Shown here one piece after another: positions 6,291-47,091 of a DNA stretch of 64,000 nucleotides. The position numbers were made by a program, and so were the translations under genes. Source of the DNA: Patescibacteria group bacterium (lineage in GTDB: Bacteria; Patescibacteriota; Minisyncoccia; Phycocordibacterales; JAKFXT01). Positions within the stretch are counted from its first letter, which is position 1. Each line of letters starts with the position of its first letter. The notes under the pieces are model-generated. The model saw only the letters and a list, made by a program, of their open reading frames with translations, was not told where the DNA came from and ran no database searches. The stretch spans positions 1,045 to 65,044 of the forward strand of contig JAKFXT010000008.1 in NCBI GenBank assembly GCA_021731245.1, in the 5' to 3' direction.

Positions 6291-6888
6291 CTTTTTCTTC
6301 CAAATTTATTTTTCCAGGAAACAAACTTATATCTTTTGGTGGATACAATCTTAGAAAAGCTCTGCCGATTATATTTTCTTTCGGTACGGCTCCCCAAATT
6401 CTGGAATCCGAACTGTGAGAACGGTTGTCTCCAAGTACAAAGTACTCATCTTTCTTAAGTGTTGTTTGAAATTGTCCAACAGACTTAAAAGTTATATATG
6501 ATTGGTCAATTTGGAAACCATTTGGGTTCTTATTATTTTTTATAGTTATATTATTGTCAGAAATTAAAACAGTTTCTTCAGGTAGAGCTATTATTCTTTT
6601 AATAAAATATTTTTCAGGATTTTTAGGATAGCGAAAGATGATGACATCATTTCGTTTAGGGTCTTCTAGATTATAAGAGATGCGATCTACTATTAAATAA
6701 TTCAAATCTTCAAAAGTTGGTTCCATTGAGGCACCGGAAACTATGAATGGTTCTGCAATAAAAAAGCGAATAGGAAGTACTATTGCTAAAGTTATAATCA
6801 CGAAGCGAAATGTTTCTTTAAAGAACGATTCTTCTTTTTTTTCTTCCATATTGGTGCCAATTGTAATACCCGCATTCGTTTGACACAA
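6283..6888 (-). CDS. lepB: signal peptidase I
   Basis: N-terminal TM, catalytic GASMEPTF (Ser) box and GDNRSHSSDSRIWG box. Confidence 0.85.
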   Translation of the reverse strand: MCQTNAGITIGTNMEEKKEESFFKETFRFVIITLAIVLPIRFFIAEPFIVSGASMEPTFEDLNYLIVDRISYNLEDPKRNDVIIFRYPKNPEKYFIKRIIALPEETVLISDNNITIKNNKNPNGFQIDQSYITFKSVGQFQTTLKKDEYFVLGDNRSHSSDSRIWGAVPKENIIGRAFLRLYPPKDISLFPGKINLEEKVE

Positions 6889-6929
6889 GAGAAAATAAAT
6901 TTTGGATTAAATATTTTAATTATTTTTTA

Positions 6930-7030
6930 TCCGCCCTCAAACTGCACACATAATTTTCTGTTTAAAATTTGCTCCGCTCGGCGCGTCCGCCTTCGCAAGG
7001 CAGTTTGAGGGCGGATGGGGGTATTAGATG
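6930..7030 (+). repeat. structured intergenic element, family copy A (outer 16-bp stem tccgccctcaaactgc/gcagtttgagggcgga around core CACACATAATTTTCTGTTTAAAATTTGCTCCGCTCGG...CGCAAGG)
   Basis: read directly; homologous copies at ~10338, ~19316, ~26657 and on - strand at ~37083. Confidence 0.5.
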
Positions 7031-7068
7031 GAAGAAAAAACAGAAAAAATGAGGTAGAATAGCGGATT

Positions 7069-7656
7069 ATGAAGTTTACAGTTATAGGCCTGGGCAATCC
7101 TGGGGGAGAATATAAGGATACTCGGCACAACACGGGAGCTTTAATTGTAGAATATCTGCAATCAGCGTTAGATTCTTCTCCTTGGAAGGAAAATAAAAAG
7201 GCAAAAGCACTAGAGAGTGTTGGAAAAATTGGGAAACACACCGTTACACTCATATTGCCGGAACAATTTATGAATAATAATGGTAAGGTTCTTCCTTCAT
7301 TAATAAAAAGTAAGGCGGATGCAGGGCGACTTCTGGTAATTTATGATGAATTGGATTTACCTATTGGGAAAATGAAAATGTCTTTCGGGCGCTCTTCTGG
7401 TGGACACCGAGGACTCGATTCTGTGATGCGAGCAATAAAGACAAAAGATTTTATGCGTATTCGTGTTGGTGTTTCGCCTGAAAGTAAAGGTGTAGCTAAA
7501 AAACCAAAGGGGGAAGACGCTGTGATTAAATTTATTTTGGGGAAATTTAAACCTGATGAACTAGAAATTCTCAAAAAAGAAAAACTAAAAATCAAAAAGG
7601 CATTAGAAAATATTGTAGAGAACGGATTTGAGAGAGCAATGGGGGAGTTTAATTAA
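7069..7656 (+). CDS. pth: peptidyl-tRNA hydrolase
   Basis: N-terminal LGNPG...Y..TRHN motif characteristic of Pth. Confidence 0.9.
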   Translation: MKFTVIGLGNPGGEYKDTRHNTGALIVEYLQSALDSSPWKENKKAKALESVGKIGKHTVTLILPEQFMNNNGKVLPSLIKSKADAGRLLVIYDELDLPIGKMKMSFGRSSGGHRGLDSVMRAIKTKDFMRIRVGVSPESKGVAKKPKGEDAVIKFILGKFKPDELEILKKEKLKIKKALENIVENGFERAMGEFN

Positions 7657-13292: not shown

Positions 13293-13398
13293 AATAAATA
13301 GCACTGTTAATTGTTAGTTGGGGCTTGTGGGTTATAATTTACTTGTGTCATTTGCATATCCTAAATCAAATATTTCCAACCTTTTAATAGGAGAAGAA

Positions 13399-13872
13399 AT
13401 GAAAGTGTTAGACGTTGGTGCCGGAAGTGGTGCCTATACTTTGGCGGTGGCCGAACTTGCAAAGAACGGCAAGGTTTATGCAGTGGATGTACAGAAAGAA
13501 CTATTGGCTAAAATAAAAGCAGAAGGAGCCAAAAGGCATTTACATAATATAGAAGGAATTTGGGCTGATATAGAAAAGCCCCACGCTACAAAACTGGCTG
13601 ACAAAATAATAGATGTCGGAATCGTTTCTAATATTTTATTTCAAGTAGAACACAAAGAAGGCCTAGCAAAGGAGGTTTCTCGTTTGATTAGACCAAGAGG
13701 TAAACTAATGGTAATTGATTGGAGCGATTCTTTTGGCGGACTTGGCCCACAGGCGAAAGACGTTTTTAATGCTAATCGCACCAAAGGATTGTTTGAAACG
13801 GTTGGATTCAAATCAGTTAAAGAGTTTGATGCGGGCGACCACCACTACGGTATAATATTTGAACGAACATAA
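13399..13872 (+). CDS. class I SAM-dependent methyltransferase
   Basis: motif I VLDVGAGSGAYT; RBS GGAGAAG before ATG 13399. Confidence 0.6.
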   Translation: MKVLDVGAGSGAYTLAVAELAKNGKVYAVDVQKELLAKIKAEGAKRHLHNIEGIWADIEKPHATKLADKIIDVGIVSNILFQVEHKEGLAKEVSRLIRPRGKLMVIDWSDSFGGLGPQAKDVFNANRTKGLFETVGFKSVKEFDAGDHHYGIIFERT

Positions 13873-13876
13873 ATCT

Positions 13877-15184
13877 ATGGGTGAAATGTCACGATTCCAA
13901 ATAATTCTCCTTGCCCTCTTTGTATTTTTTATAATTGGAGGCGTTTTGGCCTTCTCTCTTTATCAAGGTTCAAAACAAAACGCTCATCCTCAAGTTGTGC
14001 TCTGGGGGACGCTTTCTGAGCAAATGTTTCGCACCATGTTTGATAGTGGAGAATATAGATCAAGTGGGCTTAATGTTTTTTATGTTGAAAAGGATGCAGT
14101 CACATTTGATAGAGATTTTGTAAACGCTCTTGCTGAAGGCAAAGGACCCGATTTAGTTTTGATGCCACAGGACTTGATTCAAAAAGAGAAAAACAAATTA
14201 GGCTTAATTCCATTTGAAACATATTCAGAAAGATCATATAAAGATTCTTTTGTAGAAGGAACGGAAATATTTATAGAAAGTGGGGGAGTGTCAGCCATTC
14301 CTTTTACAGTAGATCCGCTAGTTATGTATTGGAATCGTAATTTATTTCAAAATGCAGGTGTGTCTGTGCCTCCGAAACAGTGGGATGAATTTTTTGCTCT
14401 AGCTAGTAAATTGAGCGAAAAGGATAGTGCCGGAAACGTAAGAAAGAGCGTTGCTCCGCTCGGAGGGTTTTCTAATGTTAGAAATGCTAAAGAATTGATA
14501 AGTCTATTATTGATGCAGTCGGGCTCTTCTATTGTGATTGTTGGTTCACAAGGTGGACTTGAGGTTGATTTAAATAATTCAAAGCAAGTTGGAGGACAAA
14601 GTGGTGCCGAGCAAGCTCTTACTTTTTATACTACTTTCACCGACCCGACCTCTCCGAACCATTCTTGGAGTCGTGCTCTCCCAGAGTCTCAAAACGCATT
14701 TATAGGAGGAAATCTTGCAACTTATTTTGGTTTTGCAAGTGAACTTCCTAGTATAAGAGCGAAGAATCCTAATTTAAATTTTGATATTACAACCGTTCCT
14801 CAATTAAAAGGTTCAAACGTTAAAATGACCTACGGTCGTTTCAGCGCTTTTGCAATTCCTCTTCAAGCGAAAAACGGAGGAGAAGCAATTTTGGTAGCCC
14901 AAACCTTTACCTCAACACCGTTTGTGGCGCGCTTTACAGAAATAACAGGTCTTCCTCCAGTTAGACGCGACCTACTCTCTATTCCTCCCACAGATTCATA
15001 TAAACAAGTTTTCTATGGAAGCGCGCTTATAAGTCGTAGCTGGAGAGACCCAAATGGACTTGAGAGTAATAATATTTTCTCAAGTATGATTGATGATATT
15101 AATTCTGGGCGCGAAGGAGTGGGGAGTGCTTTGAGTAACGCTTCTGCGCAATTACAGCAACTATTACGTAGTTCAAATAATTAA
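13877..15184 (+). CDS. membrane-anchored extracellular solute-binding-protein-like protein (orphan; no permease/ATPase nearby)
   Basis: N-terminal TM anchor, ~430 aa, composition typical of family-1 SBPs; weak. Confidence 0.35.
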   Translation: MGEMSRFQIILLALFVFFIIGGVLAFSLYQGSKQNAHPQVVLWGTLSEQMFRTMFDSGEYRSSGLNVFYVEKDAVTFDRDFVNALAEGKGPDLVLMPQDLIQKEKNKLGLIPFETYSERSYKDSFVEGTEIFIESGGVSAIPFTVDPLVMYWNRNLFQNAGVSVPPKQWDEFFALASKLSEKDSAGNVRKSVAPLGGFSNVRNAKELISLLLMQSGSSIVIVGSQGGLEVDLNNSKQVGGQSGAEQALTFYTTFTDPTSPNHSWSRALPESQNAFIGGNLATYFGFASELPSIRAKNPNLNFDITTVPQLKGSNVKMTYGRFSAFAIPLQAKNGGEAILVAQTFTSTPFVARFTEITGLPPVRRDLLSIPPTDSYKQVFYGSALISRSWRDPNGLESNNIFSSMIDDINSGREGVGSALSNASAQLQQLLRSSNN

Positions 15185-15216
15185 ATGGTAAATACTTAAT
15201 ATTCGTGAAATAATTT

Positions 15217-15669
15217 ATGAACATGTTTAAAAAAATCCTTGCTACAGCAATACCCTTTATTTTTTCCTTGAGTCTATTATTACCAGTAGTTTCTACTGAA
15301 GTTTTTGCACAACAGGACAGGTCTGTAAATACAAATTCTTCAAATCAGGATAGAGGAGTTAATACAAATAGTCAGAATCAAACTTGTACAGGTAATGATT
15401 GTACTCTAACTAATCCTTTCACCATTAGCACTGTCACACAATTATTAAATGCCATTCTGGATATACTTATAAAAATTGGTTGGATATTAGCATTCTTCTT
15501 TCTTATTTATGCTGGATTTTTATTTGTTACTGCCGCAGGAAGCGAGGAACAAATAAATAAAGCCAAAGATACATTTAAATGGACGGTTATAGGTTCCGCC
15601 ATTGTTCTTGGCGCTAAAGCCCTAGCTATTATCATTGAAACTACTGTGAAAGAAGTGGTAGGAAGATAA
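15217..15669 (+). CDS. TrbC/VirB2-like small pilin-family protein, paralog 1 (N-terminal Q/N-rich repeats, CTGNDC)
   Basis: signal peptide, then two-helix core with LFVTAAGSEE...K..FKWT motif shared with the next three ORFs. Confidence 0.5.
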   Translation: MNMFKKILATAIPFIFSLSLLLPVVSTEVFAQQDRSVNTNSSNQDRGVNTNSQNQTCTGNDCTLTNPFTISTVTQLLNAILDILIKIGWILAFFFLIYAGFLFVTAAGSEEQINKAKDTFKWTVIGSAIVLGAKALAIIIETTVKEVVGR

Positions 15670-15672
15670 AAA

Positions 15673-16044
15673 ATGAAATCTTTTTTTAAATTGTTAATTG
15701 TTAGTTGTGGGTTGTTAGTCCCACTTATTGTTTTCGCCGCTCCAGAAAATTTCAAATCTTTAATTAATATATTCACCAATTTAATAAAAGCTATAATTCC
15801 AGTAATAGGAGGCCTAGCAATTCTTTATTTCTTTTGGGGTATAGCAAAATATATATTTTCTGCTGGCAGTGAAGAACTTCGAAGTGAGGCTAAAAATGTA
15901 ATGACTTGGGGACTGGTTGCAATGTTCGTCATGTTTTCTTTTTATGGAATTTTGTCACTTTTTGGGTACTCTTTTTTACCTAGTTTTGGTCAAAATAGCT
16001 CTGGGTCAAACAATTTAGAAATCATAGACCCGTATAGACCTTAA
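15673..16044 (+). CDS. TrbC/VirB2-like small pilin-family protein, paralog 2
   Basis: signal peptide; FFWGIAKYIFSAGSEE...K..MTWGLVAMFVMF core. Confidence 0.5.
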   Translation: MKSFFKLLIVSCGLLVPLIVFAAPENFKSLINIFTNLIKAIIPVIGGLAILYFFWGIAKYIFSAGSEELRSEAKNVMTWGLVAMFVMFSFYGILSLFGYSFLPSFGQNSSGSNNLEIIDPYRP

Positions 16045-16152
16045 TGAGAGAACTTCTTGTTAGCGGTTTCTATCCACAGGACCCCTTGTTTAAGCTGGGA
16101 AATACTTGTAAAATGTAAGTATTTAAAAGGTTATTAGTTATTTATTTAGTAA

Positions 16153-16524
16153 ATGAAAAAAACTTATATAAAGTTAGCAATATTATTAGCTTCTTTTATT
16201 CCTGTTTTAGCTTTGGCTCAAGCTGGTCAAGCTATAGGTACGCTTGATGATATTATTGGGCAAATTGCAGGAATTGTTCAAAAATTAATTCCTATAGCTT
16301 TCGGTCTCGCTATTTTAGGATTTTTCTGGGGCTTGGCCAAATATATCTTCTCTGCTGGAAACGAAGAAAGTAAGGTAGAAGGTAAGAAAATAATGCTTTA
16401 TGGACTTGTTGCGATTTTTGTTATGGCTTCAGTTTTCGGAATTGTAAGATTGGCTCAAAGAACTCTGGGTATAGATGATCGCGCTAATATTAATGTGCCA
16501 AACGTTACTATTCCTAGGAACTAG
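16153..16524 (+). CDS. TrbC/VirB2-like small pilin-family protein, paralog 3
   Basis: signal peptide; FFWGLAKYIFSAGNEE...K..MLYGLVAIFVMA core. Confidence 0.5.
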   Translation: MKKTYIKLAILLASFIPVLALAQAGQAIGTLDDIIGQIAGIVQKLIPIAFGLAILGFFWGLAKYIFSAGNEESKVEGKKIMLYGLVAIFVMASVFGIVRLAQRTLGIDDRANINVPNVTIPRN

Positions 16525-16559
16525 CACATCTTGTATTTTTCTGTTGGTTTCTTCTGTAA

Positions 16560-16805
16560 TTGATGACGTCAGATCAAATTCTAAATAATATTATTTCAAG
16601 TATAATTCAACCCTTCGTTGGCTTACTCTTTGCTGTCGCTTTCCTTGTATTCTTTTGGGGAATTTTCCAAATGATAAAAGGAGCCGATAGTGAAGAGGAT
16701 TTGAAGACAGGAAAGCGCCACTTACTTTGGGGGCTCATTGGCTTACTTATTATGTTTGGGGCACAGGGAATACTGATGATAATAAAAGGTACGTTTCAGT
16801 TGTAG
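16560..16805 (+). CDS. TrbC/VirB2-like small pilin-family protein, paralog 4 (short)
   Basis: FFWGIFQMIKGADSEE...K..LLWGLIGLLIMF core, 81 aa. Confidence 0.45.
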   Translation: MMTSDQILNNIISSIIQPFVGLLFAVAFLVFFWGIFQMIKGADSEEDLKTGKRHLLWGLIGLLIMFGAQGILMIIKGTFQL

Positions 16806-16833
16806 GACGTAAATCATTTAAGAAAAAGAAAAA

Positions 16834-16854
16834 GCCGCCTTGGGGGCGGCTTTT
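16834..16854. terminator. bidirectional terminator after pilin array / GC-rich island
   Basis: hairpin gccgcc-ttgggg-gcggc then TTTT on + ; T-rich run on - strand. Confidence 0.55.
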
Positions 16855-16883
16855 CGTCGGGTGTTAAACCCAACAATTAAAGA

Positions 16884-17570
16884 TCATTTCAGTTTCGCAA
16901 ACCAGAGGAGCTCTTTTTTCGACATGGAGGCGACTTCGAACTTGACGCCGGTGAGTTCGGGTTTTTCTGAAATGAAGCTCGTCCCTGGACGATCCCCATC
17001 AAAGACCCAATTTCTTTCCGGTTTTTCTCCGTCATCGCACAGAATGCCTCGGCTTTTCACCTCGCCCGAACTGTTGAAGCCTCGATAGGCGACACACCCT
17101 CTCTCTTTTCCAGTCAGGCCCTGTTCCCAGGGTCGGGAGTCTATCTGGAAAACAACCAGACTCCCATCTGCAGGCAAGGCTTTCTCGATCCTTGAAATCG
17201 AGACAGCTTTCGGACTTTCACTTTTCCACCAGTCTCGCAGGGATTGACCCCAGGGAGAAAGGAGAAACAGTGATAAAGCAAAGGCCGTAACCGATAGGCA
17301 CCAGCTCCGTCTGATGAAGCTGTTATCGGTAAAGTTGATCAGTGCGGCTGTAGCTGTCGCAATGACGGCTACGTTCAAGGCAAGCCATACTGGTCTCCAG
17401 AGCTCGACGTCGAAGGTATTCTTTTCAAGCAGAGAGTAAGCCACGAGGAGAGATGCGGCGAAGATGATTCCTCCGCCAGCATATACCCCGTACTTTTTCA
17501 CTGTTTGGTAGATTTCCTGACTTCTTTCGACGAGCGCTGGGTCTTTCACACGACTAATTGTTGTAGACAT
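16884..17570 (-). CDS. membrane protein in a GC-rich island (partner of SPFH-like gene)
   Basis: 3-4 TM helices N-terminal, soluble C-terminal domain; GC3-rich codons unlike neighbours. Confidence 0.4.
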   Translation of the reverse strand: MSTTISRVKDPALVERSQEIYQTVKKYGVYAGGGIIFAASLLVAYSLLEKNTFDVELWRPVWLALNVAVIATATAALINFTDNSFIRRSWCLSVTAFALSLFLLSPWGQSLRDWWKSESPKAVSISRIEKALPADGSLVVFQIDSRPWEQGLTGKERGCVAYRGFNSSGEVKSRGILCDDGEKPERNWVFDGDRPGTSFISEKPELTGVKFEVASMSKKELLWFAKLK

Positions 17571-17585
17571 GGATAGCTCCTGATC

Positions 17586-18671
17586 TCAAGCTGTTTTACC
17601 GAAGATTTGCTTAAGGGTGGCCACGGCCGCGTCTGCGCCTTGACCTTGTACCCCGATGATGCTGAGGGAAGCTCTCTCCGCGCTTACTAAAACCGTCTTC
17701 ATCGCGTCGTCGAAGGAAATTTCTTTCCCTCCGTCTTTCTTACTTTCCACGACGAGTCTGTTGGCGGCTCTGCGATATCGCTCCACGACAGCTTCATTGG
17801 TAATCGCTTCCTGTAGAGATTTGTCGATCTCAACATCATTGATTGTTGCAACAAGGATGTTGATGCCATACATCTTTTCTTTTTCACCACGAGCTTTAAC
17901 GCTCGGATCGACTTCTCCTGTCGCCGTCACTCCGGTACCCAAAGCTGTCACGGCAATTTTTTTCAGTTTTTCAATTTCTTGCCTTGTTTCAGCCGGAGTC
18001 AGTTTGCAGATTTCCTTCATCAGGGCCTCTGATACAGATTTGATGAGAGCCTCTTCGATTGCAGACTCATCAACCCCTAGATGTTGAGGAAGTTCGGCAA
18101 GAACTCTGCGAAATTGCAGCAGCCCCTTGATCTTCACCAGGGGGCCAATTTCCTTATCGTTCTCTCCTCTTGTGGGGAAGTCTTCTTCGAAGGAGCGTTC
18201 GGTAAGACGAAGATTGATGTAACGACTTTTCTCCACTTGTTCCCATGGTAGCCGGACGGAAAGTCCCGGTCCGTACACACGCATGTTTCCCGTGAAGTAA
18301 TTCGTCGTGACGAGTCCCGTCCATTCCGTAACCGAGACACTCAGTCCTTCGAAAAATTTGTTGAAGAAAAGAGTGAATAGTCCCAGCCCCAAAAGCCAGC
18401 CATATTGCAGGCCAACAGATGAGAATGAAACTCCCGCAAGTACGATGAAAGCGGAGAGAGCTAAAACCATAAGCAAGATAGCGAAGCTAACTCGCTGGTT
18501 TTGTTGCACATACCACTCATCGCCGAGGGCAAGGGTGTCGTCCACTAAGGGCGACGTAGACCTTTCTGACCAAGACCATGTCGGCCAAGACCAATTTATA
18601 AGTTTCATTTTCTGATTCTCCTCATTGGTTAATTCTGGTTTTTGTCGATGGGAAGAGGCGGAATGCCTCAA
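17586..18671 (-). CDS. SPFH/band-7 (stomatin/prohibitin-like) domain membrane protein in a GC-rich island
   Basis: two N-terminal TM helices, then GLSVRLPWEQVEKSRYINLRLTE, similar to SPFH beta-sheet core; Ala/Glu-rich helical C-term. Confidence 0.4.
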   Translation of the reverse strand: MRHSASSHRQKPELTNEENQKMKLINWSWPTWSWSERSTSPLVDDTLALGDEWYVQQNQRVSFAILLMVLALSAFIVLAGVSFSSVGLQYGWLLGLGLFTLFFNKFFEGLSVSVTEWTGLVTTNYFTGNMRVYGPGLSVRLPWEQVEKSRYINLRLTERSFEEDFPTRGENDKEIGPLVKIKGLLQFRRVLAELPQHLGVDESAIEEALIKSVSEALMKEICKLTPAETRQEIEKLKKIAVTALGTGVTATGEVDPSVKARGEKEKMYGINILVATINDVEIDKSLQEAITNEAVVERYRRAANRLVVESKKDGGKEISFDDAMKTVLVSAERASLSIIGVQGQGADAAVATLKQIFGKTA

Positions 18672-19062
18672 CCCGAACTAAATCGTATCTACCCCTAATA
18701 ATAGCATATTTTATAGTAAAAGTCAAGTGCTAGAAACACAAAAATACGGCTTTATTTAGCCGTATTTTTGTGTAATTTTATTTGCGGTGAACTTGTGGTC
18801 ACAAATATTTCCTCGTCGTCACTAGAAAATTTCGCGACCCCAGCTCGCGATTTCATTTGCTAATGAAATATCGCTCCGCTTCTCACAAACTAAAAACCTC
18901 CCGCAGGGGAGATTTTTTACGTTTGTGAGCAACAATAATTTGTTCGCCGTCGCTCACAAATTTTCCTTACCCGGCCTCACTTATTTTACTTGCTAGTAAA
19001 ATATAGTTCCGGCTCTCACAAGCATGAAAAAATCCCAAGCAGTTGGGATTTGTTTCATCTTG

Positions 19063-19144
19063 TGAGCAAGAGAGGACTCGAACCTCCACCCCTTGCGGGA
19101 CCAGTTCCTAAGACTGGCGCGTATACCAATTCCGCCACTTGCCC
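19063..19144 (-). tRNA. tRNA-Leu (anticodon TAG), long variable arm
   Basis: cloverleaf folded by hand: acceptor GGGCAAG/CTTGCTC, anticodon loop CTTAGGA, T-arm GGTTCGAGTCC. Confidence 0.8.
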
Positions 19145-19218
19145 AATGAAAAACATACTAACATAAAGTTTAAATTTTTTATTGCTGATAGTTTTTAAAT
19201 CTGTTACATTTCACAAAT

Positions 19219-19291
19219 CCGCCCATAGCTCAGTTGGTAGAGCAGATCCCTCTTAAGGATAAGGTCGTAGGTTCGAATCCTACTGGGCGGA
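19219..19291 (+). tRNA. tRNA-Lys (anticodon CTT)
   Basis: acceptor CCGCCCA/TGGGCGG, D-arm GCTCAGTTGGTAGAGC, anticodon loop CTCTTAA, T-arm GTAGGTTCGAATCCTAC. Confidence 0.75.
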
Positions 19292-19454
19292 CTATTTTAT
19301 TTTCGGGTGGGGAATCGGTCACAAATAATTTTCTGCTGAAAATTTTCGCGACCCGACAAATAGTGCTTAGGCACTGTTTGTCCGCGCCGTCGCGCTACAA
19401 CTTTCGATTCCCGCCAGCCAAAAATTTATACCCACACAAGGCAGGTATAAATTT

Positions 19455-19540
19455 TTGGTGCTCAGGGCGGGAATCGAACCCGCATGCCTTGCGGCCAGAG
19501 ATTTTAAGTCTCTTACGTCTACCAATTTCGTCACCCGAGC
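19455..19540 (-). tRNA. tRNA-Leu (anticodon TAA), CCA encoded
   Basis: acceptor GCTCGGG, anticodon stem-loop AGAGA-CTTAAAA-TCTCT, long variable arm, T-arm GCGGGTTCGATTCCCGC, 3' ACCA. Confidence 0.8.
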
Positions 19541-19561
19541 GCTAACAAAAGTAAAACTAAG

Positions 19562-19589
19562 TTTTACTTGAGGCGTAGGGCGGAATCGA
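19562..19589 (-). repeat. duplicated 3' fragment of tRNA-Cys (28 nt identical to 19702-19729: last ~19 nt of the tRNA plus 9 nt flank)
   Basis: read directly: ttttacttgaggcgtagggcggaatcga occurs twice ~140 nt apart. Confidence 0.6.
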
Positions 19590-19710
19590 GTCACAAATAA
19601 TTTGTTCGCCGTCGCTCACAAATTTTTGCGACCCCGTCTCGCGATTTATTTTACTAAATAAATCATCACTCCGACCGTTCGCTTCCTAAGTAAAATATAC
19701 ATTTTACTTG

Positions 19711-19782
19711 AGGCGTAGGGCGGAATCGAACCGCCGTATAAGAGTTTTGCAGACTCTCGCCTTACCACTTGGCCACTACGCC
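19711..19782 (-). tRNA. tRNA-Cys (anticodon GCA)
   Basis: acceptor GGCGTAG/CTACGCC, anticodon stem-loop AGAGT-CTGCAAA-ACTCT, T-arm GGCGGTTCGATTCCGCC. Confidence 0.8.
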
Positions 19783-19806
19783 TTTCAATACAGTAACCAA
19801 ATTATC

Positions 19807-20136
19807 CTAACCGTTTTTTGATATTTCCTCAATGCGCTGGCGATTCTTTTCCCCCAAATCTAGTTCAAAGGAAAGTCGCGGAAGTCGCCCCGTCTTTATA
19901 TTTTTTTGAGCGTATGCAGAGAATTCTCTTTGTTGACGTTTTAGAAAATCTAGCGCCGCTTCTTCTTTGTGCACAGGAAGAACTGAAACGAATATTTTTC
20001 CAGTTTTTGCATTATCCGATATGACAACGTTGGTTACTGTTATGAGTGAGGTTCCGTTTGAATTTTGTCCAACAAAAATAGACGCCTGTCTTGTTAATTC
20101 TCGTATTAATTTTTCATTTCTAAAATCCGCTGGCAT
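19807..20136 (-). CDS. rbfA: ribosome-binding factor A
   Basis: LITVTNVVISDNAKTGKIFVSV and C-terminal RLPRLSFELD match RbfA family; immediately downstream of infB. Confidence 0.75.
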   Translation of the reverse strand: MPADFRNEKLIRELTRQASIFVGQNSNGTSLITVTNVVISDNAKTGKIFVSVLPVHKEEAALDFLKRQQREFSAYAQKNIKTGRLPRLSFELDLGEKNRQRIEEISKNG

Positions 20137-20137
20137 A

Positions 20138-21637
20138 TTATTTTATTACTTTCACAATTGATTCTATTATGTCACCGGGCGCAATAGTCGTAACTCCGTC
20201 AATTGAAAGTCCGGCTTCGCCATCCATAATTTTACTTGTCTTAGATTTATTTTGTTGTAATTCATCAATTTTGCCACGGGCAATTTCTACATCTGTTCTT
20301 ATGATACGGACATTATCATTTACAGAAAGTGTTCCACTTAAAACACGTCCTCCAACTACTTGAGATGTTTTTGTGCTACTAAATAATTTCAGAACTTTAA
20401 GTTGCCCTATAGTTTCTTCCACTTCTATTTTAGGAGTTTGTTTCTCAATAGTTTCTTTTAGCCATTCAGTAAGATGATAAATAACATTAAATGTTTTTAT
20501 TATTATATTATTTCTGTCTGCCAAATCTTGCGCTCTGTCTTCTACTTTTACATTGAAACCAAGAATAATAGCACCAGGGAAGGGAAGGGCTTTCTTAGCA
20601 TCATTGTCTGTTATTGTTCCAGCCCCAATTTCAAGAATCTTGAGACAGGCTCTTTCTGTATTTAATTTTTGTACCTCATTTGCTATAGCATCAGCCACTC
20701 CCGCTACATCCGATTTTATTATTATTGGAATAATATGAGCCCCTTCAGTAATTTTGTTTTCTATAATTCCATTTTCTTCTTTGTTTTTTAGAGCGATGAT
20801 TTCTGCCTCTTTTTTATTTTTACAAGAAGTAACTAAGGCTCCCACTTTTGGCAAAGAGCTCCAACCCACAAGTCGTATCGGGGAGGAAAAACTAGCTTCA
20901 CTTATTTTTTTGCCAGTGAAGTCCTCTATCATTTTTAATGGACAAATACTTTTTCCAGATACTACGCACATACCACTTTCAAGTTTTCCATTTTTTATGA
21001 CAACCGTTGCGGTAATTCCTTTTTTTGCATCACGACTTGATTCAATGATAACTCCTTCAAATGGGGAGCTTATATCTCCCTTCAAATCTTCTAAGTCCGA
21101 TAGCAAAAGAATCATTTCTAGAAGTTCTGGAATATTTTCTCCAGTTTTTGCTGATATTAAGACGGAAGGAATATTTCCTCCATAACCTTCTATATAAATT
21201 CCATTTTCTGCTAGATTTTGCTTTGTTTTTTCAATATTAGCGTTCGGCTTGTCAATTTTATTAATTGCAACAAGGTACGGTGTTTCACTTTCTACTATAG
21301 TAGCAAAGGCCTCAAGTGTCTGTGGTTTTACACCGTCCTCAGCTGAAACAATTAAAATAGCGATATCAGCTACAGCAGCTCCGCGTGAGCGCATAGCTTT
21401 AAAAGCGACGTGTCCTGGGGTATCTAGAAAAGTAATTTTCTCAATGTCTCCATTTTCGCGCTTATGCTCTACTTCGTAGGCATTTATATGCTGAGTGATT
21501 CCGCCAAATTCTTTTTCTACAACGTTTGTTTTTCTAATGTAATCAAGGAGAGTCGATTTCCCATGATCAATATGCCCCATTACTGCAATAATGGGTGGGC
21601 GCTTCATAGGAGTTGTTGGCGGTTTTGCAGCTATCAT
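20138..21637 (-). CDS. infB: translation initiation factor IF-2 (N-terminally truncated short form)
   Basis: G1 AVMGHIDHGKSTLLD, G3 DTPGH, NKID G4; domains II/IV follow; 499 aa. Confidence 0.9.
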   Translation of the reverse strand: MIAAKPPTTPMKRPPIIAVMGHIDHGKSTLLDYIRKTNVVEKEFGGITQHINAYEVEHKRENGDIEKITFLDTPGHVAFKAMRSRGAAVADIAILIVSAEDGVKPQTLEAFATIVESETPYLVAINKIDKPNANIEKTKQNLAENGIYIEGYGGNIPSVLISAKTGENIPELLEMILLLSDLEDLKGDISSPFEGVIIESSRDAKKGITATVVIKNGKLESGMCVVSGKSICPLKMIEDFTGKKISEASFSSPIRLVGWSSLPKVGALVTSCKNKKEAEIIALKNKEENGIIENKITEGAHIIPIIIKSDVAGVADAIANEVQKLNTERACLKILEIGAGTITDNDAKKALPFPGAIILGFNVKVEDRAQDLADRNNIIIKTFNVIYHLTEWLKETIEKQTPKIEVEETIGQLKVLKLFSSTKTSQVVGGRVLSGTLSVNDNVRIIRTDVEIARGKIDELQQNKSKTSKIMDGEAGLSIDGVTTIAPGDIIESIVKVIK

Positions 21638-26610: not shown

Positions 26611-26640
26611 AATCCCTAACTTAAAGTTAGGGATTTTTAA
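26611..26640 (+). terminator. clpB terminator
   Basis: hairpin aaatccctaac-ttaaa-gttagggattt followed by TTTT. Confidence 0.55.
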
Positions 26641-26656
26641 TTTTATCTGGTGCGGA

Positions 26657-26700
26657 CACGAATAAATTTCCTGACGGAAATTTTTTGCGATCCCCGGCTC
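26657..26700 (+). repeat. structured element family, core copy D (palindrome AAATTTCC-tgac-GGAAATTT then TTTTGCGATCCCCGGCTCG)
   Basis: matches core of copies A-C but hairpin arms carry compensatory changes. Confidence 0.4.
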
Positions 26701-26797
26701 GATATTTTTGCCTTTGCTTTACGCAAAACAAAAATATATCTGCGCCCACGCACAAGTACGAAAAAATCCCAAGAAGTTGGGATTTTATTTCGTCTAG

Positions 26798-26881
26798 TGC
26801 GTCGGGCAGGATTCGAACCTGCGTAGCCCATTGGGCGACAGATTTACAGTCTGTTGCGATTGACCGCTCCGCCACCGACGC
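26798..26881 (-). tRNA. tRNA-Tyr (anticodon GTA), long variable arm
   Basis: acceptor GCGTCGG/CCGACGC, anticodon stem-loop ACAGA-CTGTAAA-TCTGT, T-arm GCAGGTTCGAATCCTGC. Confidence 0.75.
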
Positions 26882-28258: not shown

Positions 28259-28648
28259 TCAGAAGCTGATGAAGTACGTACCGCCCGATTTGAGCGTGGC
28301 CAGGATGCCGGTCGGAATGACCGTTTCAGCCATGAAGGCGGCAGAAATCCTGGCACAAATCCCGAGAGCCATGATTGCGAGAAGGCTCTCCCGTACAACA
28401 TCGCTCATGATGTAGGACGGATTTCCGCTCCTGAGTGAATCCGGGGAAAGGTGAACGAGGATTTCTTTCGGTCCTTGATCTCTCCATTCCTTGTACGGAA
28501 TCAGTCTTCTCGAGGTGCTGGGGCCGTCCTGGAGATTGGTGACGACGCCCTGCACTTTCTTGCTGAAATCGATTTCTTCCGCCGTCGGAATTGGCACAAC
28601 TTTCTTGGGCGGTCCGCTGTACCTCTTGAACATCTGATGCTCTAGCAT
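28259..28648 (-). CDS. hypothetical protein in same GC-rich island
   Basis: most protein-like of three overlapping frames; hairpin + T-run terminator downstream at ~28150-28185. Confidence 0.3.
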   Translation of the reverse strand: MLEHQMFKRYSGPPKKVVPIPTAEEIDFSKKVQGVVTNLQDGPSTSRRLIPYKEWRDQGPKEILVHLSPDSLRSGNPSYIMSDVVRESLLAIMALGICARISAAFMAETVIPTGILATLKSGGTYFISF

Positions 28649-28770
28649 GTCTTTCCCCCGAAATTGTTTCTACATATAAAGAACTACCCCTGTATCCGGA
28701 ATTTCGTTTCGCTCCGGAATTTTTCAAATATACTCCTAACCAAATTAATGTAAACCCCCTCTATGCACTT

Positions 28771-32873: not shown

Positions 32874-33058
32874 AACACAGAAAAGATGATACACATCATG
32901 TTTTCTGGTTTGGCGGGAGACGGAGTGATGTTTTGTCATCAGACAAAACCACGAGTCAGGGTCGTGGAATTTTGCGAGAGACGACGAGCAAAATATCCCT
33001 GACCGCCATGCGGGTAATAAAAATGTGAACGAATTCTAATGATGTTAAAATAATAAGA
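32869..33058 (+). other. structured non-coding region (at least four hairpins) immediately 3' of tRNA-Trp; candidate ncRNA or integration scar
   Basis: hairpins gccaaac.cagaaaa/ttttctg.gtttggc, gttttgtc/gacaaaac, ccacg/cgtgg, gtcaggg...ccctgac read directly. Confidence 0.3.
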
Positions 33059-38721: not shown

Positions 38722-38814
38722 CCAATTTATATTAAGGGTTTATTACTATTTTGACAAGTAAATTAATAAATGGTTAAATTTTACTTAGTCCAGTTTCCCC
38801 CCGAAGGAAGGAGT

Positions 38815-39087
38815 ATGTTCGAAGAAAGGATTAAATATCGTCCAGCGTTTTGTCATTGTGGTCTGGTGATGGGCCATCCGGATTGCCACCATTCGCAGGC
38901 TTTCCTGCAGGATCTTCTGGATCGTATGGAGGACCTGTATGAAAGAGGGGGTCTCATGTTTGCCGTTACGGCTTTGCTTGGTGAGCACAGTGAAGACCGC
39001 GTCTACACTCAGGACGAGTTGAATCGGGCGATGGTGTTTGCGGTACGAGCCAAGGCCATTAATTTCAGCTTAACGGTGCCAGGATGA
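38815..39087 (+). CDS. small Cys/His-motif protein (CHCx7HPDCHH) in a GC-rich island
   Basis: AGGAG RBS before ATG 38815; TTGACA-17-TTAAAT promoter-like upstream; terminator 39118-39143 (ggcacc-tgcg-ggtgcc + T8). Confidence 0.4.
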   Translation: MFEERIKYRPAFCHCGLVMGHPDCHHSQAFLQDLLDRMEDLYERGGLMFAVTALLGEHSEDRVYTQDELNRAMVFAVRAKAINFSLTVPG

Positions 39088-42282: not shown

Positions 42283-42311
42283 TTGACAAATCTGTTTATT
42301 TAGTGTATTAT
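42283..42311 (+). promoter_or_regulatory. consensus-like promoter TTGACA-17-TATTAT, copy 1 of a duplicated ~30-bp promoter module
   Basis: ttgacaaatctgtttatttagtgtattat read directly; ATG 42359 downstream with GAAGGAG RBS. Confidence 0.45.
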
Positions 42312-42343
42312 TAAGGATAGATTTTCCGAATAACGCTTTCTTT

Positions 42344-42811
42344 TTGAAGGAGCAGAAAATGAACAAAATCCTGATTTTCTTGGCGTTTTTCGTCACCCTG
42401 ACCGGCAATGTTCGCGCAAGTGGAGACGGGGACGGTGGCGATGGTGCAGGCGGTGGAGATGGTGGAGGTGCGGGGAAACAAATCCCGCAGTACGAAAAAT
42501 GCTTCACCTTCGGTCGCGCGCTCCTCAACAGGGTGAACGACGAAAAGATTTCCGAGACCGATGCTCTCAAGATTGCCAGGGCAAATGCCACGATTCTCTA
42601 CCCTGGAAAGACCGACCTCTGGGAACCCATCGTCGCGGACGCGGTGAAGTATGCGTACTCGTTGAGTCTTGCGACAGCAAGATCGCAAGTCGGAACCCAG
42701 CTCACCGGCGACTGCGCGCAGGCGGATGCGGTGCTCAAGAGTAAAGACCGCTGGGGAGACAATCAAGGATGGATTTCCAGGGTGGAAAAAGTTCCGGCGA
42801 AAAAGAAGTAA
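42344..42811 (+). CDS. secreted Gly/Asp-rich small protein in a GC-rich island
   Basis: signal peptide (start likely ATG 42359 MNKILIFLAFF), (GD)n/GGG tract, GC3-rich; terminator 42834-42868. Confidence 0.45.
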   Translation: MKEQKMNKILIFLAFFVTLTGNVRASGDGDGGDGAGGGDGGGAGKQIPQYEKCFTFGRALLNRVNDEKISETDALKIARANATILYPGKTDLWEPIVADAVKYAYSLSLATARSQVGTQLTGDCAQADAVLKSKDRWGDNQGWISRVEKVPAKKK

Positions 42812-42866
42812 GTCGCTTGCGAGCGACGGAATAGGCGGGTGTGCAAGCACCCGCCTTTTGTTTTGT

Positions 42867-42895
42867 TTGACAAATTTGTATATTTAGTGTATTAT
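42867..42895 (+). promoter_or_regulatory. consensus-like promoter TTGACA-17-TATTAT, copy 2 (27/30 nt identical to copy 1)
   Basis: ttgacaaatttgtatatttagtgtattat; GGGAGA RBS and ATG 42938 downstream. Confidence 0.45.
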
Positions 42896-42937
42896 TTAAA
42901 ATAGAAGTGTTTCGACAACTAACTATGGGAGATTTCC

Positions 42938-43222
42938 ATGAACGCTGATTTGCTGATTGGAGCTGTTTGCTGGGGCTTGATGTTCCTCTTCTTTTTTTGG
43001 AACATCTTCCACAGGAAGGAGGGCGAGAAATTCCTCACCATTCTGACTGGCGGTGGGGTGTCGGCATACTGTCTGTCCGGGATTTTGTTCCATATCACCT
43101 TCCCGAGCTACTCGACATGGAGCTTCAAGGCCCTCCAGGTTTGGTCCTTGGCCGGCATGCTCATGGTTCTCATCGTGGTGATGATGGCGATTCGTGGCAG
43201 TCCCGAAAGAGGAAGAAACTGA
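42938..43222 (+). CDS. small 3-TM membrane protein in a GC-rich island
   Basis: three hydrophobic helices, GC3-rich; terminator 43242-43279 (agccggttccg...cggaaccggct + T-run). Confidence 0.4.
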   Translation: MNADLLIGAVCWGLMFLFFFWNIFHRKEGEKFLTILTGGGVSAYCLSGILFHITFPSYSTWSFKALQVWSLAGMLMVLIVVMMAIRGSPERGRN

Positions 43223-43304
43223 TATAGAAGGCAACAGGTCGAGCCGGTTCCGCATCACGGAACCGGCTTTTCATTTTTCATACTTATAATTTATACTTGA
43301 CTCC

Positions 43305-46734: not shown

Positions 46735-46778
46735 TCTGAAGTAAATTTGTTCCCAAGGGAGGTCTCAGTGGCTTATGG

Positions 46779-47091
46779 TTTCGTGTGTTCCCGTTGCGGA
46801 AGTGTCGAGGGTGTGCACGGATTTGAGCCTGATGAGGATGGCTCAAAACGCTTGAGTGCATATCGCTCCAATCTCAACTCCTGTCCTGGCTTCAAGTACA
46901 AGAGAAAAGATGAGAGATTGGCTGTACACGCATACTCATGGTGTCCAACCAGTACTTTTCCTAGAGAAATACTCTTGAGAGATCAGAGACGGCAATATGG
47001 AGGAAAAAAAATTAAACACATCAACCACTCAGTTACAGCAATTTTGTTCTTCAGCGGGGGTCGCAGTGCGGTGGTCGACATCGGCTCGTAG
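46779..47091 (+). CDS. small Cys-rich (CxxC) hypothetical protein in a GC-rich island, GTG start
   Basis: AAGGGAGG RBS before GTG 46779; terminator 47103-47136 (gggcgc...gcgccc + T-run). Confidence 0.35.

Follow-up and report, generated by a model that had tools for sequence, protein, structure and literature searches.

Attachment (att) sites of tyrosine integrases reportedly lie, according to work by Williams from 2002, at the T-loop and at asymmetric 3'-end sublocations of tRNA genes. Sites of this kind in tRNA and transfer-messenger RNA (tmRNA) genes are among the closest described counterparts of the element reported here, a structured cassette that recurs behind tRNA genes in a 64,000-nucleotide (nt) stretch of a Patescibacteria genome (assembly GCA_021731245.1, contig JAKFXT010000008.1, positions 1,045 to 65,044). 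This whole stretch is called the window, all positions and strands refer to it, and codes such as L002 and L016 denote loci fetched from other genomes. As with tRNA/tmRNA-targeting att sites, a 3' segment is directly repeated, beginning within the T-loop or at the very 3' end of the gene and extending a few nt beyond it. The tRNA is left intact, tmRNA also serves as a target, and relatives include both occupied and empty sites. The two classes of cassette junction (within the T-loop and at the extreme 3' end) coincide with the two 3' sublocations reported for tyrosine integrases. Unlike att sites, the cassette insert measures only ~110-150 nt, comes without integrase or cargo and also bears the repeat in antisense, and its interior consists of a conserved, compensatorily evolving fold that is present in several copies per genome and absent from viral contigs.

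Organization of the tRNA cluster

The tRNA genes were called with ARAGORN and Rfam, which were concordant for the span 18672-19790 and returned the same four genes as an earlier reading of this sequence (the original prediction): tRNA-Leu(TAG) (19062-19144, - strand), tRNA-Lys(CTT) (19219-19292, + strand), tRNA-Leu(TAA) (19456-19540, - strand), and tRNA-Cys(GCA) (19710-19782, - strand). The analysis started from the trailers of all eight window tRNAs, compared in tRNA orientation. The cluster is composed of these four tRNA genes and four copies, two of them in tandem, of a 130-150-nt cassette, which in tRNA orientation consists of a trailer hairpin, an arm antisense to the 3' segment of the host tRNA (X'), a core of ~95 nt (M1), and a sense arm (X). 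A profile (nhmmer) built from relatives detected six copies (E = 9e-24, 4e-20, 5e-19, 2e-15, 1.5e-5, and 9e-3), all 3' of tRNAs, and no further copies elsewhere in the 64 kb, and a covariance model (R1) scored five of the six at 35-111 bits. The carriers are the tRNAs for Cys, Leu-TAG (twice, in tandem), Leu-TAA, Tyr, and Trp, that is, five of the eight tRNAs in the window; tRNA-Lys(CTT) is without a cassette of its own.

The tRNA-Cys cassette (- strand) has all of these parts. The last 20 nt of the gene (19710-19729) form the proximal copy of X and are followed by the hairpin H (aagtaaaatgtatattttactt; 19688-19709), by X' (GGAAGCG, 19680-19686), which is antisense to the T-loop/T-stem segment CGATTCC with 6 of 7 bases paired, by the M1 core (19590-19679; E = 4e-20, 105 bits with the covariance model, fold z = -5.3), and by the distal X (19562-19589). 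The core contains the short helix G-N-C / G-N'-C, a tandem G.A, the hairpin P2 (19641-19669), and the long P3 (19590-19634), and terminates in ...TTTGTGAC. Behind the distal X, a diverged copy of H with a T-run (19546-19569, - strand) lies just upstream of tRNA-Leu(TAA). The distal X repeats 28 nt of the tRNA-Cys 3' end and trailer exactly (19562-19589 = 19702-19729, with mismatches at 19561/19701 and 19590/19730); it comprises the last 20 nt of the tRNA plus 8 nt of trailer by the ARAGORN call, or 19 plus 9 by that of Rfam, and is surrounded by a looser repeat of 55 nt at 78% identity (family D3). The original prediction regarded this duplicate as the footprint of site-specific integration. 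An insertion-type footprint at a tRNA 3' end is indeed what is seen, but the two 28-nt copies are separated by just 112 nt of structured insert without an integrase, and this interval is itself a copy of a conserved structured module.

The imperfect direct repeats reported to fill the cluster are real and far beyond chance, and their identity is that of copies of this one cassette. The 30-nt repeat noted near 18938 and 19601 was placed at 18934-18963 and 19596-19625 and represents the tip of P3 (a 19-nt part of it has 2 matches vs 0.04 expected), and the 28-mer represents X of the Cys cassette. The motif ggtcacaaata, the 3' end of the core, stands at 18797 and 19317, one base from the positions first given, but at 19590 the sequence reads gtcacaaata after an a. 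The palindrome tcgcgaccccagctcgcga is present at 18832-18850 and joins P2 to P3; a hairpin formed by its two tcgcga halves was considered and dropped, as covariation puts CGC in P2 and GGUCG in P3. Finally, the hairpin aatcccaagcagttgggatt (19031-19050), 12 nt 3' of tRNA-Leu(TAG), does recur as aatcccaagaagttgggatt (26763-26782; 19 of 20 positions identical), 15 nt 3' of tRNA-Tyr, but this shared "terminator" is the first hairpin of the cassette and not an independent terminator.

Conserved fold of the core

Comparison across genomes shows that the fold of the core is conserved on the tRNA sense strand and maintained by compensatory change. An alignment of 107 copies defines M1 as a three-way junction that ends in ...UAU-YY-GUGAC. 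It includes a 3-bp helix G-N-C/G-N'-C, in which the middle pair is GC in 37, CG in 29-31, AU in 25, and UA in 5 copies, a tandem G.A, the hairpin P2, which is variable in sequence with its pairing kept, and the long P3, in which one A is bulged, a tandem G.A occurs again, and the loop-closing C-G alternates with U-A. Covariation was controlled by 500 shuffles and by sliding the partners along the alignment. Paired cells amounted to 95.5%, compared with 76.3% in shuffled and 36-47% in slid alignments; double-change cells numbered 682 vs 218 in the shuffles, none of which reached the observed value; and the covariation score was 0.534, against 0.180 for shuffles (again reached by 0 of 500) and 0.06-0.13 for slid partners. 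G.U pairs (190, including one that is invariant) greatly outnumber A.C pairs (25), so it is the tRNA sense strand on which the fold is read. Folding energies for the alignment are -36 kcal/mol on that strand and -21 kcal/mol on the opposite one, and individual copies fold better on the sense strand as well. Together, the strand-biased pairing and folding energies show that the fold exists on the sense strand, either as RNA or as single-stranded DNA.

Close relatives indicate how the core changes over time. In four syntenic, ortholog-like pairs, core identity was 92-97% compared to 38-72% in the flanks, and in six close pairs, all 23 changed base pairs were compensated and none was broken, with the other differences located in the flanks. 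Copies inside single genomes are 24-44% divergent and hence old. Those in the window differ from one another by 24-29%, which rules out a recent burst inside the genome, and each of them has a relative in another genome at 13-17% divergence. A grouping of cores by tRNA isotype, as ancient orthology would produce, was not significant (7 of 72 vs 4.8 +/- 2.5 expected). Several likenesses of the core were also tried and rejected. The boxes of a C/D-box-like guide (GUGAUGA / CUGA) are not conserved among copies; a kissing loop between CUGCU of the first hairpin and AGCAG of P2 shows no covariation among copies; and resemblances to hammerhead ribozymes, to group II intron ends (GUGYG...AY), and to an IS91 target (GTTC/CAAG) are superficial and without Rfam support.

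Arms copied from the host tRNA

The sequences of both arms come from the host tRNA itself. X duplicates the 3' segment of the neighboring tRNA in direct orientation, extends past the tRNA 3' end, and has a bimodal start: in ~38 cases, the Cys cassette of the window among them, it falls at C56 in the T-loop, so that X covers the last 18-21 nt of the tRNA, and in ~22 others (in the window, Leu-TAG, Tyr, and Trp) at about C72/A73, which gives the last 1-5 nt plus trailer. The duplicated length varies between cassettes from ~5 to >28 nt. X' tracks eight T-loop variants (e.g., TTCGATT -> AATCGAA, TTCAAAT -> ATTTGAA, and TTCAATT -> AATTGAA), and in the tRNA-Cys of L016 it exactly matches the non-canonical T-loop CGCACAT. 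Such T-loops in place of TTCRAWY occur in the tRNA-Cys genes of L016 (1140-1215), L097 (1821-1895), and L032 (7595-7671), as CGCACAT, GTGCAAC, and GTGCAAA, respectively.

At T-stem G.U pairs, X' fits the complement of the 3' strand over the 5' strand in 8 cases vs 1, and X' is therefore either templated from X or under selection to pair with it. On the same 8:1 ratio, X' as a copy of the T-stem 5' strand, i.e., a duplicated T-arm with an insert, was rejected in favor of a true complement. The closing stem formed by X' and X has a mean of 5.3 contiguous pairs compared to 3.1 for mismatched flanks, and in tRNA-Ser and tmRNA copies it spans almost the whole 3' segment. At the L113 tmRNA, the antisense arm covers the entire tmRNA 3' segment (acceptor strand and T-arm) and is split by an extra hairpin.

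Other copies in the window

The remaining cassettes differ in preservation and in the type of their first hairpin. The Leu-TAA cassette (19294-19458, - strand), found by the profile and scored at 34.6 bits by the covariance model, is degenerate. It begins with a palindrome (19418-19458) that takes in the CCA end of the tRNA, followed by an X' (GGCGGGAATCGAA, 19403-19415) complementary at 13 of 13 positions to the tRNA T-loop/T-stem at 19466-19478. The core (19318-19402) and the distal X (19294-19317) are both decayed, and the latter directly adjoins the tRNA-Lys 3' end. Behind tRNA-Leu(TAG) lie two cassettes in tandem, both on the - strand. Cassette B (18923-19066; profile E = 2e-15) has an extended hairpin (19015-19066) that starts from the last 5 nt of the tRNA and contains aatcccaag...cttgggatt, a core at 18933-19014, and a distal X (TTGCTCACAA) at 18923-18932. 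Cassette A (18784-18929; detected by the profile, 102 bits with the covariance model, fold z = -7.6) follows with an extended hairpin (18882-18929), a core (18798-18881) that includes tcgcga...tcgcga, and a distal X (CACAAGTTCACCGC, 18784-18797). The array is closed, before the SPFH gene, by a perfect 16-bp terminator-like hairpin (18736-18773, no strand assigned).

Two further cassettes lie outside the span of the cluster. That of tRNA-Tyr (26640-26801, - strand; found by the profile, 43.7 bits) is degenerate, with an extended hairpin (26749-26801) that includes the last 5 nt of the tRNA, a core at 26655-26748, and a distal X (CGCACcAGAtAAAAT) at 26640-26654. The one behind tRNA-Trp (32878-33008, + strand; E = 9e-24, 110.8 bits) comprises H (32878-32907), X' (GGCGG, 32912-32916), the core (32917-33003), and a distal CGCCA (33004-33008).

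The first hairpin of the end-type cassettes (window 19015-19066 and 18882-18929; also L023 and L107) is a long, near-perfect palindrome that starts from the last 3-6 nt of the tRNA and is arranged as A-run, hairpin, and T-run, with a loop that is often CUGC (cAAACUGCUUUg) in unrelated genomes. The six terminator-like sites of the cluster are confined to first hairpins, and the ~95-nt cores are not terminators. Cassette A (18794-18885) is closest, at 80%, to the cassette behind tRNA-Lys in L076 (5022-5134); the genes for tRNA-Lys and tRNA-Leu(TAG) are convergent in L076 and divergent in the window; the cluster was thus rearranged, possibly via the cassettes.

Distribution and occupancy

The cassettes are tied to tRNA and tmRNA 3' ends well beyond this genome. 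A 22-base degenerate core pattern was scanned on contigs from one genome per species, for which the counts are lower bounds, and matched at least 119 loci. Among the matches listed, ~110 belong to Patescibacteria, in lineages including Saccharibacteria, Paceibacterota, and Nomura-, Kaiser-, Lloyd-, Taylor-, Yonath-, Vogel-, Wolfe-, and Zambryskiibacteria; the ~8 matches listed from outside this candidate phyla radiation (CPR) are without the rest of the core and correspond to the number expected by chance. A same-strand tRNA, of any isotype, ends 64-200 nt upstream in 71 of the 122 matches listed. With the profile, 96 of 146 copies lie directly behind a tRNA, and several others lie behind tmRNA or are later units of tandem arrays. 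M1 behind tmRNA was seen at L011:6879-7460, L087:3104-3691, L101:5114-5697, L113:7500-8000, L118:2550-3128, and L013:1211-1967. A direct repeat of the tRNA 3' end at both borders is also present at other cassettes, with tmRNA genes among the targets. In a sample unselected for the cassette, made up of 80 metagenome loci picked solely for encoding initiation factor 2 (IF-2; the infB-anchored sample, with 207 tRNAs, in which the IF-2 closest to that of the window is only 54% identical), the covariance model gave 27 matches (E < 1e-6), 24 of which are right behind a same-strand tRNA. The viral contigs scanned with the core pattern contained no match, and a phage origin was rejected for this reason.

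Which tRNAs carry a cassette varies among related genomes. Downstream of infB-rbfA, many genomes share the conserved tRNA set Cys / Leu-TAA / Lys / Leu-TAG, but not its cassette occupancy: tRNA-Cys carries a cassette in the window and in L016 and none in L076, L097, and L032, and across the infB-anchored sample the profile finds a core behind only 4 of 55 tRNA-Cys genes. Empty sites of the kind foreseen in the original prediction thus exist, and since most tRNA-Cys genes in relatives are without a cassette, the cassette is gained and lost. The tRNA-Tyr next to clpB has M1 in the window, L099, and L032, and a different core on the same platform in L004, L107, and L063. A search rule that is independent of the core (a T-loop/stem complement, then 12-260 nt, then a direct copy) found the X'...X layout at 37 of 195 tRNAs in pattern-selected loci and at 20 of 204 in the infB-anchored sample, the latter mostly with non-M1 cores (M2 and others). 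The presence of such cores on the same layout indicates that the platform is more general than M1.

M2 was seen at L004:2351-2443, L076:2778-2874, L099:5398-5489, L064:1658-1756, L143:4992-5085, L158:6275-6366, L177:9477-9677, and other loci, and has the layout ...GAAA-ACCUnnnGAG...nnnAGG-UGUAC-hairpin with a GUAA loop. Further core classes occur in L033/L107 (GGUUCUCCC...GGGAAACC), in L046/L089/L122, and in L123/L151/L163. Neither M2 nor these classes have an Rfam match, and with Rfam 15 over the cluster, only tRNAs (and tmRNA at some loci) reach threshold, with nothing credible up to E = 10. A match to LOOT RNA (RF03000) near an M1 cassette in Lloydbacteria (L098:5621-5752) is unrelated to the cassette.

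The SPFH block and the surrounding genes

The G+C-rich SPFH block next to the cluster was proposed in the original prediction as possible cargo of an old integration event. It is G+C-rich (0.49-0.51 vs 0.386 in the window) but is not cargo, as the gene is syntenic in relatives. Both L002 (labelled Nomurabacteria) and L035 have an SPFH/Band_7 gene (358-360 aa) on the same strand, placed between the pilin genes and their tRNA cluster, and that of L035 is G+C-rich as well; the sequences of these SPFH genes are too diverged for BLASTP. Synteny in two such distant relatives argues against integration cargo. The wider gene order is likewise shared across distant CPR (window 13859-21637; L002:1294-7935; L035:51-7686), namely a solute-binding protein, two or three type IV secretion system pilin genes (T4SS-pilin, PF18895), SPFH, the tRNA cluster, rbfA, and infB, with variable content in the middle. 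In L035, a free-standing LAGLIDADG_3 homing-endonuclease-like open reading frame (ORF; 6572-7216, - strand) lies between the SPFH gene and two M1 cassettes, and is a single case.

The integrase that an integration event would call for was not among the ~40 window ORFs scanned, which gave no match to Phage_integrase, transposase, or reverse transcriptase families and encode housekeeping functions (ftsZ, ftsA, gyrA, infB, clpB, topA, serS, relA, and others). Five other stretches of the window are also G+C-rich (0.48-0.54 vs ~0.37), at 1133-1759, 28326-28727, 38770-39087, 42311-43258, and 46747-47091. Their longest ORFs look non-protein-like, the stretch at 42311-43258 fills the gap between dprA and serS, and no Pfam or Rfam match and no BLAST hit against all fetched loci was found; they may be unannotated RNAs or orphan genes. 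A small S-adenosylmethionine-dependent methyltransferase gene (13318-13872, + strand) gave a borderline match to Fibrillarin (PF01269; 27.4 bits, cutoff 27), which is probably a generic Rossmann-fold match.

Possible roles and origin of the cassettes

Taken together, we consider it rather probable that the cassette is an RNA module borne on the tRNA trailer, closed by X' and X, and copied only rarely by a process aimed at the tRNA T-loop or 3' end. Mechanistically, it would be transcribed together with the tRNA as part of the trailer, and its fold would act as RNA. Pairing of X' with X would yield a closed core, i.e., a self-contained RNA, and may at the same time keep the antisense arm from invading the T-arm or 3' end of the tRNA itself. 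Such an RNA would most likely serve to bind a protein or to take part in processing, as a module coupled to the expression of the tRNA. The insertion or copying events that produce a new cassette would be rare, would be directed at the T-loop or 3' end, and would use the target as template for both arms; X' could have originated from an att site folded as a single strand, from template switching at the trailer hairpin that extended a palindrome, or from snap-back synthesis in the course of an RNA-templated insertion.

Several points weigh against this trailer-borne RNA module. The choice of RNA over folded single-stranded DNA is drawn solely from the strand asymmetry and the compensated changes, and higher identity in the core than in the flanks could also reflect horizontal spread or gene conversion. 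Many end-type first hairpins look like T-run terminators, which would halt transcription before the core. About half of the copies have a short or imperfect closing stem, and neither X' nor the distal X is consistently better kept, the distal X being decayed in some copies and X' short in others. Occupancy is sporadic, with a core behind ~6% (profile) or ~12-14% (covariance model) of the tRNAs in the infB-anchored sample, and decayed copies, two of them in the window, are as compatible with a dispensable or selfish element as with a function for the host. Lastly, no partner protein, ligand, or catalytic activity was identified for the module.

Alternatively, and as the main rival explanation, though in our estimate an unlikely one, the cassette could be a miniature integrative element at the DNA level, the sense strand of which would fold as single-stranded DNA with X' and X rebuilding the tRNA target duplex. 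A tyrosine recombinase acting in trans (Xer-like or a phage integrase) would then insert a circle of ~140 nt at the T-loop or 3' end, restoring the tRNA and leaving its old 3' end as the distal X. Such an element would account for junctions at the two canonical 3' sublocations, the use of tmRNA as a further target, a direct repeat that runs through the tRNA end as att cores do, an X' that is the exact complement of X, tandem arrays that resemble cassette arrays, sporadic occupancy with empty sites, the decay of distal X in some copies, and the invariance of the base of P3 beside the junction, and the strand-specific wobble is also compatible with single-stranded DNA; its account of the flanks, the arrays, and the sporadic occupancy is very good. 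However, no recombinase lies in the window or adjoins the copies, the core pattern has no match in viral contigs, and copies within a genome are old (24-44% divergent). The unrelated cores on the same platform and the absence of integron consensus boxes also argue against it, and a first hairpin that, in several copies, is a duplicate of the local terminator points to local duplication rather than import. The explanation also accounts poorly for the changes in resident ortholog-like copies, all of which are compensated; this is hard to understand unless the fold still matters after insertion. That a large integrative element left a classical att scar at tRNA-Cys or tRNA-Leu, and the SPFH block as a remnant of its cargo, is highly improbable by now and largely refuted. 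The exact 28-nt duplicate of the tRNA 3' end, the G+C-rich SPFH block, and the variable content between pilin genes and tRNA cluster in different genomes would fit it, but only 112 nt lie between the repeats, the ORFs scanned in the 64 kb include no integrase, L002 and L035 have the SPFH gene in synteny and L035 has it G+C-rich too, no tRNA-fragment repeat brackets the block, G+C-rich patches recur across the window, and the same repeat architecture is found without cargo at >100 tRNAs of other genomes.

The fold itself invites other explanations. Riboswitches generally combine a three-way junction with a closing stem, the 5' strand of which has an alternative upstream partner, and the cassette has such a layout, with an X' complementary to both copies of X, several core classes on the same platform, and conserved junction nucleotides. 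In a 3' cis-regulatory switch, the core would be an aptamer for a ligand or a protein, and an unstable closing stem would let X' invade the tRNA T-arm or 3' end and thereby block folding or maturation, so that a signal would adjust the supply of tRNA. We regard this as improbable: the distal X is far longer than the stem requires, tandem arrays are left unexplained, the upstream hairpin of end-type copies would be kinetically favored by forming first, P3, which is long, conserved in sequence, and provided with a tandem G.A, is more like a protein-binding site, and there is neither a ligand candidate nor a link to particular genes. Still less probable is self-cleavage, in which the cassette as a ribozyme would release either itself or the 3' end of the tRNA from the precursor. 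A compact, superficially hammerhead-like three-way junction with conserved junction nucleotides and a tandem G.A by a helix, in multiple copies and placed at an RNA-processing site, would suit a ribozyme, but no Rfam ribozyme matches up to E = 10, the alignment is without CUGAUGA / GAAA / U-H, only a minority of tRNAs carry the cassette, and nothing points to a cleavage site. That the repeats have no function, being local tandem duplications of trailers, terminators, and promoter pieces structured by accident, could be read from the 55-nt, 78%-identical repeat around the 28-mer, the tandem units A and B, and the terminator- and promoter-like matches; it is the least credible of these explanations and is refuted by covariation across genomes, as CPR classes share a conserved core that shows compensatory changes and stands behind unrelated tRNAs in >100 genomes.

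Beyond M1, we tentatively suggest, as something that may hold but on balance probably reaches too far, that there is a CPR-wide class of RNA cassettes at tRNA and tmRNA 3' ends, in which several unrelated structured cores (M1, M2, and others) would each be placed behind an intact tRNA by a process that copies the 3' segment of the target twice, once inverted and once direct, and so makes the closing helix of the cassette. Such a class would be either a protein-less mobile RNA or single-strand element, or a layer of tRNA-coupled riboregulation. If so, a sizeable share of the tRNA and tmRNA genes in a superphylum with genomes of ~1 Mb (about 10-25% in the sample unselected for the cassette; five of the eight tRNAs in the window) would carry an unannotated, selected, structured RNA. 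As streamlined genomes rarely retain non-functional DNA, this would imply an RNA that is important for tRNA expression or for a ribonucleoprotein, or else a mobile element with a new way of target copying. For annotation, duplicated tRNA 3' ends in CPR should not be taken as prophage or island borders unless cassettes have been checked for. The covariance model and the X'-core-X rule can now be used for a census of the family and for a search for a co-occurring protein.

Comparison with known systems

The cassette family is apparently undescribed, and its nearest known kinds share features with it yet fail defining ones. The core was not found in the full-text literature, the searchable part of which is incomplete, and TIGR-Tas, which has units of 36 nt, is unrelated. 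Among RNA systems, bacterial tRNA group I introns have a structured core, a guide segment that covaries with the flanking tRNA, and a sporadic distribution, and introns are abundant in CPR; unlike them, the cassette lies behind an uninterrupted tRNA, pairs only with the 3' flank, and has a core of ~95 nt that has neither a group I core nor an Rfam match. Small RNAs of tRNA precursors, such as the 3' external transcribed spacer 3'ETS-leuZ, plant tRNA-snoRNA dicistrons, and the engineered tRNA scaffold, also lie directly behind a same-orientation tRNA, and tRNA promoters and processing enzymes could likewise make the cassette RNA. They do not, however, have the brackets of antisense and sense tRNA 3' ends, nor do they form a repeated family over many tRNAs.

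Among DNA elements, the integron attC site and the attP(+) site of CTX phage resemble the cassette in that inverse and direct copies of the core site form a stem around a structured region, that the fold is strand-specific, and that units form arrays behind one entry site. The cassette, in contrast, targets tRNA genes, has a three-way-junction interior conserved phylum-wide, and carries no gene cargo. It is not an attC site, as the R''/R' boxes (RYYYAAC / GTTRRRY) are absent, the arms are tRNA T-loop or 3'-end sequences, no integrase is present in the window, and no IntI was found. Similarly, a miniature inverted-repeat transposable element (MITE) or DNA transposon remnant was rejected, as there are no element-specific terminal inverted repeats, the arms are site-specific tRNA copies, and the duplications range from ~5 to >28 nt. 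Repetitive extragenic palindromes and bacterial interspersed mosaic elements (REP/BIME), Rickettsia palindromic elements (RPE), and MITEs are nevertheless alike in being short, multi-copy, and hairpin-rich, in usually lying 3' of genes, and in their birth and decay, and some RPE insert in tmRNA, as cassettes follow tmRNA. Unlike these elements, the cassettes are strictly linked to the 3' ends and the strand of tRNA and tmRNA genes, have arms derived from their targets, and share a core that is conserved across the classes of a superphylum.

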